From: a virus
Lineage: Duplodnaviria; Heunggongvirae; Uroviricota; Caudoviricetes
Strand: one strand, 5' to 3'
Virus record (IMG/VR): IMGVR_UViG_2529292909_000016
Coordinates: 1 to 43,585 of that record
Length of the DNA: 43,585 nt
A program made the position numbers. Position 1 is the stretch's first letter. The number at the start of each line of letters is the position of its first letter. This document shows, one piece after another, positions 33,001 to 39,000 of this stretch.

Positions 33001-36000
33001 CCTGTGGGCCTGCCGGACCCGTATCGCCCTTGTCTCCCTTCGGGCCGGGAACGCCACCACCTGCAGCAACCTCTTCTGCCTTCTGTCTCGCCGCCTTGGC
33101 CTCATCCATTGCCGCCTTCACAGCCTTCGACGTGGCAGCCTTTGTTTCGTCATTACTGGCAGTATCACTACTTAGCTGCACAATTCCCTTCTGTGCCGTC
33201 GTCGCGTCCACCACATTTGCTGCGCTGCCCGCCGGACCAGGCTCCCCGCGGGGGCCCTGAGGCCCAGCTTCGCCTCGTTCACCTTTCGGACCTGCCGGAC
33301 CTGTCGCACCGGCATCTCCTTTCGGTCCCTGCGGCCCCGCCGGGCCTCTCTCTCCTGCAGGTCCGCGTAGCCCCTGCTCTCCCTGAGGCCCTCGTTCTCC
33401 CGGCTCACCTTTTTCACCTGCGGGACCGGCTGGTCCGGTGTCACCTTTAGGTCCCGCATCACCTTTCGGCCCGGGTGGTCCCCCCGGGTCTCCGGGGGCT
33501 CCTTTTTCACCTCTGGCCCCGGTTTCACCTCGTGGACCAGCAGGCCCCTGAATCCCCCGCTCTCCTTGCGGCCCCACCGGTCCTGTTTCACCGCGTGGTC
33601 CTTGTGCGCCTTGTGGACCTGTTTCTCCACGAGGGCCTGCATCACCTTTCGGTCCGGTATCACCTTTAGGGCCTCTGGCATTCTCTGCCATACGCCTGGC
33701 CTCTTCAGCACTAACCGTAGCAGCCTCAGCACGTTTAAGAACGTCTCCGGCGGCCTCATGAGCCACTCTGGCGGTTTCAGCATGTTGTCTGGCATCATTC
33801 GCGTCTGCTGCCGCGGCCTTTTCAGACTCGCATGCCCGGGTCGCCGCTTCTGCAGCTTCACTGGCTTTTTGTCCGGCTTCAGCCGCCCTGCTGGTTGCCG
33901 TCTTTGCACTGTCAGATGCACTCTTCGCACTGGCTGCTGCACTGTCTTTTGACTGTGTGGCCTGAGTGTTTTTTGTCGCCGTGTCTTCATTCAGGCGACG
34001 AATAGTGGCAAGGTCATCAGCCACATTATTCTGTATCTGCCGGAAATCTGTCAGCAGTTCTCCGGGTATGCTCACCTCAACAAGACTGCGGCGTAACAGC
34101 ATATTGAGCGTCACCGTACTTTCGGTCCCCTCAATACGCACACGTCCGTAGACAGCAGTCTTCCCTTTCACCGTCACCGAAACCGCATACTCCCCCGGAT
34201 CCATCGTCATTCCGTAATATCCACCTTCACGGGTCACTGCCGACGCACTGGTGCCGCTGAGCGCATCCGGTGAAACTGTCAGCGCCGTCAGGGTAATATT
34301 TGCTCCTGATATCGCCTCACCATCAGGAGATTTCAGCGTCCCCGAAACAACAACACTCACACTCAACCTCCGTTAAACACTTTTTTACGGGCAGACAATG
34401 CACTGTCTGCCCCCTGTTTGATCCCAAGTTGCTCAACAAAACTCTGATAATGCTGCGCAGCCAGCCCCGATTCTGCGCCACCGGCAGCATCCTTACTGAA
34501 AGCGCGAAACAACATCCAGTCCACCAGTGGGTTAACATAAGCATCTTCCAGTGGAACTGGCGTATCATCGTCCTGCGTCAGAACATACACTGCCTCCGGT
34601 ATGCCGGTAATGATTTCTGCCGTATGCGCCTGGTTGAGCGCATCCACATAACGCTGTCCCTGTGCCGCGGCGACATCCCGTTGTGCGCCAGCATTATCCC
34701 GTTGCGCAGCTGCCTGTGCCCTGGCAGCTTCTGCTTCCAGTTTAGCCACCCGGCCTGCCATTTCGCGCATCTGCAGTTCCTGTTGTTGCTGCTCCTGGGC
34801 CTGTTGCTGCTGAGCGGCCTGCTGCTCTTCCGGGGTCATCTCATCCGGTGATTTTGGTGTCCCCAGCGCCGCACGAATACGTTCGACAAATTCCTGTTTC
34901 TGCGGCACATCCAGAAGGTTAACCCACAGGTCGAGCACGACGGCCTGCACCTGAGGTGGCAGCCCCTGAATATCCACGGTGTCTGACGGCGTGGGTGTTA
35001 CGCTGAGAAAAAGCATTTGAAGGTGGCAAAAGTCTGGAACCACGAGTCCGTTTCGTTTCTGCCAAATTTGCGCATTTTTCATCACAACCATCATCGCCTG
35101 AAGGCTCGTCATGACTGGAGTTGCCGTCAGATTTCTGCGCACTTTTTTGATCATCAATTTGCGCATTTTTCTGCGCACTTTTCTCTGTATTTCTGGGGGA
35201 GTGTTTGCGCAGTTTAATGTACCGCCGAGCCGTGTCATAACTGATATTGTTCTGACGGCACCAGTCCTGAAGCTTTATGCCGGTTTTGACATGTTCGCGT
35301 CGAAATGCCTGCTCCAGCTTTTTCCAGTCCAGCTTTGCCATGTCACCTTCTGACGTTCTCTGTTAAAAACTGATGCACAATGACTGCTGTAAATTTTCAG
35401 ATTTCACACAGCAGAGCCATGTCTGATTAATGTTTAACCTTATTTAGGTTATATCCGCTTCATTCCACTACAGCACCAGATAGGCTGCCTCGCGGATAAA
35501 TGCCAAAGTCTCCTGATATAGAAACCCGTCGCCACATCGAGCGCTGATCAACATTTGTATATTCACTGCGACAGAAAGAATTTATTTTATTGAATAGTTA
35601 GAAATACAGAATTGCATGCTTTATAAGCATTGACGCACACTTCATTTTTAGCAATATATTCTGTTCTCATAGACGATCAGCCCTGCATGCACTGCCGGAC
35701 ACCGTCGGCAATTTTACAGACCTAAGAGGCAATACCAAAAAGCTAACGCGCTTTATCAAGACTTGAACAACCAACCAATAAAAAAAGCACCAGTACCGCT
35801 ACCAATGCCCATTTCGTCGTTGTTCACAGCATTCTGTGTACCCACTGTATTTCGCGTCATATCACCACGTCAGACAATCCTTAAGGATTACATAAGATTT
35901 ACGCATAATAATGCCCATTTTCAACACAGACAAGGGAATTTATATGTTAAATCAAACGCTAACAAAATCTCTTCTTATATTTTTACTTGTCATAATCGTT

Positions 36001-39000
36001 TCTGTATCCATCATATACATTGTAAGAACTCCAGTCAGACTTGATGTGAACGATGTCACTGAGATTAACCAGAAACATCCCATTATTTTTCTCATCCGGC
36101 ATGGGGAAAGATGCGATCGCTCCCAAAGAATATGTCTTTCAGCACATGAGGGAATCACAGTAAACGGAGCTAACAAAGCTCAACAATATGGAGATAAATT
36201 CAGAAGAATGTTTCCATACTACAGTCTCTATTCTACAGACACACTCCGAACAATGCAGACAGCCACTTTTTTTCGGGAGGTAAGACAGCAACTATTCCGG
36301 ACATATCGACATGTGATGATAACGCAGTAAATAATATCCTTAAAATATCAAAATCAGATCATGTTACTGTGATTTTCACACATAATCACTGTCTGTCCAG
36401 AATTGCAAAAAAAATGAATGGATGGAGATTTAAACCTGATTATATGGGCACACTGGTTCTGCATCGGGAAAATCACAATCTGATTCTCGACGGACATTTA
36501 AAACCAAACGAGCTTACCCAGTGATCCATTTGTTGATAATGCACTGGCATTGATTCAGGTTATATCTCTCCTCATAAAAAAGGCCAGCGATTGAGCTGGC
36601 TCTGTTAATCGAGGCATTGCATCCTGATGTACTCCTGCAGGTAGTTAACCTGCGCGGTTATCTTGTCGATTCCACTTCGGAGACGGTAATAATTGAGTTC
36701 AGCATCTGCTGTAAGTCCTGAGCTTTCTCCATCGCCCATGCCGCTGGCTCCGGTCGTTGACTTTGCACAGGTGGCGGCGACTTGCAGGCGCTTACGCCCA
36801 GCAGAAACATCAGCACGGAGACTTTCAATAGTCGCGTTAGCATCAGCAAGCTCCCTGGTGTATCTGGCATCGAGTGCAGCAACATCACGCTGGCGCTGCT
36901 GTATGTCAGCAATGGTGGCGTTCGCCTGGCTGAGTTTTGTCTTCGCATCATCTCGCTGCTCTTTGTAGGTGATGGCGTTATCACGGTAATGGTCTGTTGC
37001 CAGCCACAGCGATCCACAACCAAGCAGCAGGACAATAAGCACGCCATACAGCACACGATTCATATCACCACCAACGGATTGCCCAGACCAGAACAGCAAT
37101 TGCCACAATACGAATGGCAAAAGCTGCCGCTCTTGTTAAATCCAGACTTGCTGGCGTCTCCACCTCAATGCCTTTCATAATGGACAACCTCAGAAAGAAT
37201 CTTTTATACTTCCTCACAGGGAAAGAACCTCCCTACCCATAATTTCTCCCTTGCCTTATTCAAGGTCAGAAACACAAAACCCCGCTTGCTGCCAACAAAC
37301 GGGGTTTTTACTTTTACTCACTTAAATTTTGCCAGTTCGCAGGATTTCGTGTTATCCGTTCGCGTTGGTCAACGGCATTTTTCAGCAGAATATTCTGCTT
37401 ATCTGTCGATACTCCAGCACGCCAGCGCGCTCTCCTGGTCACGCCGCGATACCTGCCCGTAACAGTTATTTGAGCGCTTCCGACAGTCCCTGCCGCCGTC
37501 ATATATCCATCGGCGGATTTCAGCACATGCACCTTTCCGGTCTCCTGCGTTCAGTTTCCGGTAAAACGTTGAGGTGAAGCATTTCGAAGGCCCGATGTTG
37601 TACGGACAGAATGACGCGATGCCCGCTTTCTGCGGTTCGGTCAGTGGCACTCTGATGTTTTTCTCCACCCATGCCAGCGCCTTATCACGCTCAATGGCGT
37701 TAACCCGGTCGCATTTTTCCTTCGACAACTTCATGCCCGGAACGACAGGTTTGCCATCCACCAGGATGGCACCGCGGCAGATAGTCCAGATACCCGCACC
37801 ATCACGGTATGCCGTGGTGTGGTTACCTTCTTTTTCGTCAAGAAACTGGTCGAGGATTTCAGGCGCAGAAGCGCCCGCAGCAATCAGCGCCAGAACGACC
37901 GCTGATAAACCATAGCGGAATTTCCTGCTCATCAGCTTACTCTCCCCGCGCCGCCTTACGCCGGTCCTCTTTGATTTTGAAATACAGGTTAGTCAGGTAC
38001 GTCAGCAGCCCAAACAGCAGACTCCCCAGCACGCCTATTGCCGCCCACTGAGACGGGGAAACCCTGTCCAGCAACTGCAGGAACCAGTAGCCCGTTCCCA
38101 CCGCTGACGTGGTGTATGACACACCTGTTGTGATTTTTTCCATCTGGTACATACCCCGTCTCCCGCAATCCGGAAGCTCACAACAATATAAAGACCACCG
38201 GCACACACCGATGGTCCCTTGCGCATGCTTACATCATCATGTCGCTGTCAGGTGTAGGTTCACCGCCATCTGAAGCACTCCCGTCACCCGCGATACCTTC
38301 CGGCTCAGGAACCGCTGGTACGCCCAGCAGCTCATCCAGAATGGCATCCACTTCTGCATCAAGACGCGACTCAAGGTTCTGGCGAAGTTTCTGTTTCAGT
38401 GCGCTCCGGACTTCTTCAGAGCGCAGGACTTCCTTCACTGCCTCTGCAGTGACCAGGGATGTGATTTCTGACATGGGATTTTCTCGCTGAAAGGGGTTGT
38501 TAAGGAGTAACGGGCTCTTCGGGTTTGCTTCCGGCTGACTGACTGGCGCTGATTTTCTCAGCGGCCCTTTTATCAATCTGCCTGCACCAGAAATCGCGCA
38601 CAGCCCTGTACCCACCCGAAAGAAGATACAGCACACAGACCGCCGTACAGAAGTACAGCATCACCTGATGAATAAATGTCATAATTTCTTACCGTTATGG
38701 TTGACAATGAGAATTGTTTTCATTTAAAAACCAATGTACGAAAGCATCTTTTCTTTACATTCTCCATTGGGATTACCTCCGCCAGCTTCCATTCCTGCCG
38801 CTGGCGGCTTTTTTTAGCAATTATGCGGCTGCTCCAGCTTTGTTTGCTTTAACTTCCACCGTATCAATAAGTACAGGGTAGGTTTCTGCACTACCTGTAA
38901 TATCCGTAATGACAAACCTGTTGAGTCCATTAGCAGTATTGGCCCATTTCACCAGGTCAAACGCCTGTCCATCCACACCATCGAGCACCGGAGTAACATT

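Follow-up and report, generated by a model that had tools for sequence, protein, structure and literature searches.

A frameshifted Ais/PmrG-family phosphatase gene in a defective prophage and its recurrent intact relatives

Results

A histidine phosphatase gene split by the loss of one T

The DNA analyzed here (the window) is positions 1-43,585 of the IMG/VR virus record IMGVR_UViG_2529292909_000016, prophage and adjoining chromosome. On its plus strand, at 35944-36524, translation reveals a histidine phosphatase gene of the Ais/PmrG family that is split over two reading frames. The evidence as a whole is best explained, and we think probably so, by an inactivated copy of a prophage moron for a membrane-anchored, periplasm-facing phosphatase of this family. 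A sequence-only reading had proposed two frame pieces carrying LIRHGERCDRS and VIFTHNHC, a prophage location on the strand opposite to the neighbors and disruption by a frameshift. Translation confirmed the pieces, and the location, between Rz and a terminase remnant, and the frameshift were likewise borne out by comparison with relatives.

The 5′ piece (35944-36330, plus strand, frame 1) begins MLNQTLTKSLLIFLLVIIVSVSIIYIVRTP and includes LIRHGERCDRS. It holds the authentic codons 1-110, comprising the membrane helix, the RHGERCDRS box and R102, after which 18 codons are read out of frame up to a TAA stop at 36328-36330, so that 128 codons are translated in total. Its ATG at 35944 is equivalent to the start chosen by RefSeq in intact copies and is preceded at a distance of 6 nt by a Shine-Dalgarno-like AAGGGA, read from the sequence (35932-35937, plus strand). 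The 3′ piece (36274-36524, plus strand, frame 3; SGGKTAT...VIFTHNHC...LTQ) carries the invariant residues H147, H149 and C150 and ends with a TGA stop at 36522-36524; frame 3 itself is open over 36222-36524 (FFSGGKTATIPD...VIFTHNHCLSRIAKK...LTQ). When positions 35860-36560 were aligned to Escherichia coli O10:H32 NMBU-W12E19, E. coli O104:H4 2011C-3493 and phage GER2, the sole indel was a single T: all three relatives have a run of eight (T8; ACT TTT TTT TCG, encoding T-F-F-S) and the window has seven (T7; 36267-36273, plus strand), which produces a -1 frameshift. The break had been expected at 36300-36312, about 30-40 nt downstream of the actual indel. Judged from its sequence, the product of the window copy is not a functional phosphatase, because the frameshift leaves residues 1-110 and removes the THNHC histidines H147 and H149.

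A hidden minus-strand gene was considered as the real feature of this region and rejected, the longest antisense open reading frame (ORF) being at most 74 residues long. Rfam and tRNA scans gave no match inside 35300-36700.

The repaired protein belongs to the Ais subfamily

With the missing T restored, the 193-residue protein has the same sequence (100% identity) as RefSeq WP_000934362.1, whose annotation is 'lipopolysaccharide core heptose(II)-phosphate phosphatase'. It scores 202 bits against the Ais-subfamily model NCBIfam NF011945 (cut-off 142) over residues 10-187, and BLASTP aligns it to K-12 Ais with 43% identity over 158 residues (E = 7e-44). The resemblance to Ais thus extends beyond the two motifs and is not a chance occurrence of them. 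The proposed Ais/PmrG-like identity held at the level of the subfamily and not at that of the PmrG equivalog (NCBIfam NF052369), whose cut-off of 170 bits is missed at 113.4 bits. The protein also passes the gathering threshold of Pfam PF00300 (His_Phos_1; 28.9 versus 21.7 bits), with a match limited to the N-terminal third of the model.

Across an alignment of 23 homologues with 38-85% identity, R52, H53, E55, R56, C57, D58, R59, S60, C64, R102, H147, H149 and C150 are invariant. The intact allele accordingly contains the branch-1 histidine phosphatase motifs RHGE, R-T-x-Q-T-A and T-H-N-H, together with conserved cysteines. The His and Arg residues of the PF00300 branch are represented by R52, H53, R102 and H147/H149, of which H147 and H149 go untranslated in the window's own frame. 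An AlphaFold2 model, computed for the near-identical protein P0001, has a mean predicted confidence (pLDDT) of 91.6 and consists of a helix at residues 7-37 followed by an alpha/beta domain; Foldseek matched this predicted domain to SixA, phosphoserine phosphatases, PGAM5 and PhoE at probability 1.00. The modeled domain is thus a phosphoglycerate-mutase-like alpha/beta fold. A profile search of the PDB yielded no solved structure of the Ais family and gave weak matches to fructose-2,6-bisphosphatase and Sts alone. Features related to export are the predicted N-terminal hydrophobic helix and the conserved cysteines, and the N-terminus, a stretch of 19 hydrophobic residues and then RTP, resembles a signal anchor that is not cleaved.

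A recurrent slot between lysis and packaging genes

The Ais-like gene is flanked by the lysis cassette (holin, lysozyme, Rz/Rz1) on one side and the terminase genes on the other, and is on the strand opposite to both; this slot and orientation are those of bor in phage lambda. On the lysis side, the Rz/Rz1 spanin genes (36605-37120, minus strand) are the last of the cassette and are annotated 'lysis protein' in relatives of 99.9% identity. The Ais-like gene and Rz converge, and a GC-rich hairpin with a T-run on its minus-strand side, GCCAGC-n6-GCTGGC (36583-36600), separates their ends.

Intact copies in related prophages, whose existence the sequence-only reading had left to be checked, were found as T8 alleles, for example in O104:H4, ML35 and phage GER2. 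Lambdoid prophages carry homologues of 83, 76, 72, 64 and 60% identity in this slot, always on the opposite strand, next to lysis modules (P21-type holin with lysozyme and Rz; holin_8 with GH108; M15 peptidase) and packaging modules (Nu1/GpA; ParB/TAGT/Terminase_2; DUF1441) that vary from one prophage to another. Copies detectable at the DNA level are rare, occurring in 83 of the 5426 complete E. coli genomes. Typical of a moron, the gene stands on the opposite strand between modules, is present in some related phages only and appears to have promoter-like and hairpin elements of its own. Since homologues fill the same slot in unrelated backbones with different modules, we regard the Ais-like gene, on these sequence comparisons, as a recurrent, diversifying moron.

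Two carriers of the intact allele illustrate its surroundings. The O104:H4 2011C-3493 prophage (locus L035, 8279-11389) has the late layout of a Shiga toxin (Stx) phage, with Q, a gap, the SASA esterase NanS-p, DUF1378, DUF826 and the lysis genes; no stx genes are present in the 766-bp gap. In E. coli AST198 (locus L005, 18280-20826), a prophage remnant devoid of head and tail genes contains the Ais-like gene intact along with the lysis cassette.

More distant paralogues, with about 43-57% identity, are found in settings other than the phage slot, and 1440 conjugative-plasmid records carry a paralogue. On the IncI-gamma/K1 plasmid pHU590 (locus L049, 4878-5462), the gene named 'traG' lies between traF and traH, just past the rci shufflon recombinase gene; this IncI 'traG' encodes an Ais-like histidine phosphatase with about 45% identity over residues 40-184. 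A paralogue of the 57% lineage (locus L052, 925-3585) is located immediately 3′ of two AraC-family regulator genes, and in the 43-49% lineages (loci L012 and L053, about 2000-4600) the paralogue adjoins an EAL-domain gene, accompanied in L012 by hydrolases and a SPATE autotransporter.

A candidate PmrA/BasR-box promoter is conserved upstream of the gene

The PmrA box consists of two hexamers spaced by 5 bp that take the place of the -35 element, with the TAA bases being contacted (PMC3973317, PMC10570014). Its hexamers read CTTAAG or XTTAAT, and those of pbgP are CTTAAT and CCTAAG (PMC3973317, PMC10570014). Upstream of the Ais-like gene, a direct repeat of this type, CTTAAG-gatta-CATAAG, is found at 35880-35896 (plus strand), 64 nt 5′ of the ATG, with one mismatch to YTTAAK-N5-YTTAAK. 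An equivalent element occurs at -64 to -71 across lineages although the flanks have diverged. It is a perfect match in the 68% (CTTAAG-gattc-CTTAAG) and 64% (CTTAAG-gattt-TTTAAG) lineages. One mismatch is present in the 76% lineage, where the element is the same as in the window, in the 60% lineage (GTTAAG-atttt-CTTAAT) and in a plasmid copy representing the 66.5% lineage (ATTAAG-cgtta-TTTAAG). For the five phage lineages with no or one mismatch, the set that was shuffled without the plasmid copy, P values per sequence range from 0.0005 to 0.05. Conservation of the half-site columns, calculated over six sequences, amounts to 5.2-5.5 of 6, compared with 3.3 of 6 in the upstream flank.

A candidate -10 hexamer, AATAAT, follows 10 nt past the box (35907-35912, plus strand), and the corresponding columns, (A/T)ATAAT, are conserved at this offset in six lineages. 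In K-12, the same 10-nt gap separates the arnB box, CTTAAG-gttaa-GTTAAT, from a TAAAAT downstream. A sigma-70 consensus scan upstream of the gene found no promoter with a -35 element and no -35-like hexamer; a promoter lacking a -35 fits activator dependence without proving it.

Several observations weigh against a PmrA/BasR box. Within the window alone, four matches to the pattern stand against 2.3 expected, which is not significant. The element has two mismatches in the 72% lineage (ATTAAT-tgcct-CATAAG) and is degenerate, with three, in the 83% lineage (locus L006). It is also absent upstream of the non-phage paralogues, no PmrA-like box preceding those of L052, L012 and L053. Taken with the conservation described above, the predicted promoter nevertheless has the architecture of a PmrA/BasR-activated promoter, and this suggests that the intact gene belongs to the host BasRS regulon.

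Proposed function of the intact gene

In lysogens, the intact gene would be transcribed from its own activator-dependent promoter, in which the PmrA/BasR box replaces the -35, and Fe3+, Al3+ or mild acid would induce it along with the host BasRS (PmrAB) regulon. Acting at the periplasmic side of the inner membrane, the enzyme would then most likely take a phosphate off the inner core of lipopolysaccharide (LPS), by analogy with PmrG at heptose II. Such dephosphorylation would lower the negative charge of the surface and possibly alter phage adsorption. PmrG is reported to remove phosphate from heptose II of the LPS core (PMC8129183, citing Nishino et al. 2006). Deletion of pmrG in PmrA-constitutive E. 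coli left polymyxin B resistance unchanged (PMC8129183), and a polymyxin phenotype is therefore not to be assumed for the phage gene; the polymyxin-resistance effect suggested by the sequence-only reading is doubtful for this reason. Tolerance of Fe3+ and Al3+ and altered adsorption of core-dependent phages are more plausible pay-offs.

The substrate may differ from heptose(II) phosphate, since this Ais-subfamily protein does not reach the PmrG equivalog cut-off and is just 43% identical to Ais. There is an appreciable, if lesser, chance that the protein does not dephosphorylate heptose II of LPS and either acts on another periplasmic phospho-substrate or is a fimbrial regulatory factor resembling AfrS. 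Apart from the missed cut-off, this alternative draws on the strong diversification of the family and its varied contexts (the IncI 'traG' by the shufflon, EAL-domain genes, AraC-family regulators), and on one member that its source labels 'transcriptional activator AfrS'. That name is an unverified database label, however, and the catalytic motifs, cysteines and export helix are all invariant, as would be expected for a periplasmic enzyme; in addition, the candidate PmrA box would link the gene to the LPS-modification regulon. An LPS-core phosphatase is thus our preferred reading of the intact allele, with the identity of the substrate uncertain on account of the 43% identity and the missed equivalog cut-off.

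The T tract as a probable slippage hot spot

In our view the window copy is a pseudogene of an accessory gene that is known but uncharacterised, a sequencing error being the less likely explanation; most likely, slippage in the T8 run of a decaying prophage would have produced a recent, private frameshift. Among 43 complete E. coli genomes with the allele at 99% identity or more, at least 30 have the extra T and none is identical to the window. T8 is likewise the state of 11 IMG/VR contigs and of 12 of 12 metagenome contigs retrieved with a pattern tolerant of tract length. The T7 allele had no exact match in species-representative genomes or viral contigs, and no database record was found for the truncated 128-residue product.

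An error of homopolymer sequencing or assembly, with the organism itself possessing an intact gene, appears rather unlikely as the source of the missing T, although several facts speak for it. Relative to the O10:H32 allele, the sole difference in 700 nt is one base in the T8 run, a classic site of error; T7 was met in no other sequence of any collection searched; and an independent frameshift in the 60% lineage derives from E. coli UMNF18, whose genome we take to be an early next-generation assembly. Against an error, about nine other homopolymers of at least 7 nt in alignable regions all match close relatives, one of them an A8 run of this gene that lies 134 nt downstream of the T tract, so there is no general error pattern. 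The T deletion is the sole indel in 4.65 kb compared with O104:H4, and comparison with AST198 gave one indel over 13.7 kb of chromosome. The prophage moreover has real large deletions, its decay being already in progress. As the rest of the window is free of a homopolymer-error signature, a genuine private mutation is favored over an error.

Indels recur at the same codons in other members of the family. In locus L034 (2680-2735; IMG/VR UViG 651053023; product identical to P0066, from E. coli UMNF18), an allele of 60% identity has an independent -1 frameshift in the corresponding poly-T codons, with T5 compared with T6 in five sibling loci; it is the truncated product of this locus that bears the AfrS label, unverified, of its source. 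P0029, encoded on a 527-bp ENA contig, is a 112-residue product with a +2-frame start (MEINSEE...) that joins the authentic C-terminus, explicable only by a T9 allele. Because indels recur at these codons (window T7, P0029 T9, L034 T5), the T tract is, by sequence comparison, a slippage hot spot.

It is very improbable that the tract forms a contingency locus, with slipped-strand mispairing turning the phosphatase on at T8 and off at T7 or T9. Length variants did arise at the same codons in these three independent cases, and surface-modifying genes are typical phase-variable loci. Frequent polymorphism of tract length was not found, however: the copies inspected, more than 50 of this allele, have T8 except for one T7, that of the window, and one inferred T9, and between lineages the tract is unconserved, T8, T7, T6, T5 and T3 all being found. 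True phase variation is disfavored by this overwhelming predominance of T8 and by the lack of conservation. Some of the length variants could furthermore be sequencing errors, and the mutation rate of a run of eight is too low in mismatch-repair-proficient E. coli to sustain switching at the population level. Transcriptional slippage on U7 that restores the frame was set aside as quantitatively minor, since the run is shorter than the nine or so nucleotides needed for efficient slippage.

The host prophage is defective

From its gene content, the prophage of the window is defective. Compared with the intact ML35 prophage, 3.8 kb comprising the C-terminal half of terS, terL and most of the portal gene are gone (junction at 34971-34975), as are a further 4.4 kb with the scaffold and capsid genes (junction at about 34599-34607). 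What forms the other boundary of the slot is the remnant of the small terminase subunit gene (34971-35341, minus strand). The sequence-only reading had called this neighbor a helix-turn-helix remnant; a remnant it is, now identified as the N-terminal 124 of 271 residues of the small terminase subunit, truncated by the deletion. The AST198 remnant has breakpoint 34971 in common with the window and is devoid of everything equivalent to window positions 19782-34970.

Just upstream of the Ais-like gene, a 34-residue ORF (MTRNTVGTQNAVNNDEMGIGSGTGAFFIGWLFKS; 35756-35860, minus strand) overlaps an 11-bp hairpin with a minus-strand T-run (35785-35810), and the sequence of this region is partly conserved in the 76% lineage. 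Rfam matches above the gathering threshold were obtained for two small RNAs, STnc100 in the Q-to-nanS-p region of the prophage (40953-41114, minus strand) and sRNA-Xcc1 at the boundary of chromosome and prophage (16371-16459, plus strand).

Discussion

Both the gene and its family are already recognized by annotation pipelines, with intact copies in RefSeq and annotations of such copies for about 1% of E. coli genomes, and our literature search found no experimental study of phage-borne Ais/PmrG paralogues. Beyond annotation, the present comparisons add, modestly, a slot that is conserved across unrelated backbones, a conserved upstream architecture resembling the PmrA box and apparently recurrent poly-T frameshifts at the same codons. 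The window copy, being inactive, is of little weight on its own. Clinically important strains, the 2011 O104:H4 outbreak lineage among them, carry the intact allele, and at least one prophage remnant with extensive deletions (AST198) has kept it.

Were BasR control and removal of LPS-core phosphate both true, this would be a plain example of a phage gene that has joined a two-component regulon of its host and thereby changes the cell surface, with possible effects on the tolerance of metals and cationic peptides and on phage adsorption. The IncI homologue beside the shufflon of the LPS-binding thin pilus is a hint that mobile elements commonly target the phosphate of the LPS core. A wider and decidedly speculative picture, which we consider doubtful, is that phage Ais-like phosphatases form a diversifying family of lysogenic-conversion genes wired to BasRS/PmrAB through a conserved PmrA box, with the related plasmid copies as part of a wider family. 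LPS-core phosphate would then be remodeled only under Fe3+, Al3+ or acid, alleles might be tuned to core types or to phage exclusion, and poly-T frameshifts might serve as a crude on/off switch.

Comparison with known systems

The phage protein resembles E. coli Ais and Salmonella PmrG in its NF011945 subfamily, its length of about 200 residues, its N-terminal export segment and the motifs RH(G/A)ERCDRS, RTxQ(T/S)A and FTHNHCL, and a candidate PmrA box is likewise shared. It differs from them in sequence (43% identity, under the PmrG equivalog cut-off) and in location, the phage gene being prophage-borne whereas ais adjoins arnBCADTEF. In the alignment, the anchor of the phage protein looks uncleaved, in contrast to the Ala-rich and cleavable-looking signal of Ais. 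The phage gene also has a box of its own about 65 nt from the ATG, whereas the box in the K-12 ais-arnB intergenic region is that of arnB only.

Compared with WP_000934362.1 copies (E. coli O104:H4, ML35, AST198 and others) and phage GER2, the window is 99.8-99.9% identical in DNA and has the same neighbors; those copies are T8 and intact, unlike the T7 copy of the window. SixA and other small branch-1 histidine phosphatases share the predicted fold and, in the model, the catalytic Arg-His...Arg...His constellation, but SixA-type proteins are cytoplasmic, lack a membrane helix and conserved cysteines, and have 12-19% identity to the phage protein. Comparable morons are found where lysis and packaging genes meet in lambdoid phages. 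The closest parallel in genomic position is bor of phage lambda, which also lies directly past Rz, on the strand opposite to the late operon and ahead of cos and the terminase genes, and which also encodes an envelope protein. The two proteins are unrelated, Bor being an outer-membrane lipoprotein and the Ais-like product, by its family, a predicted enzyme.

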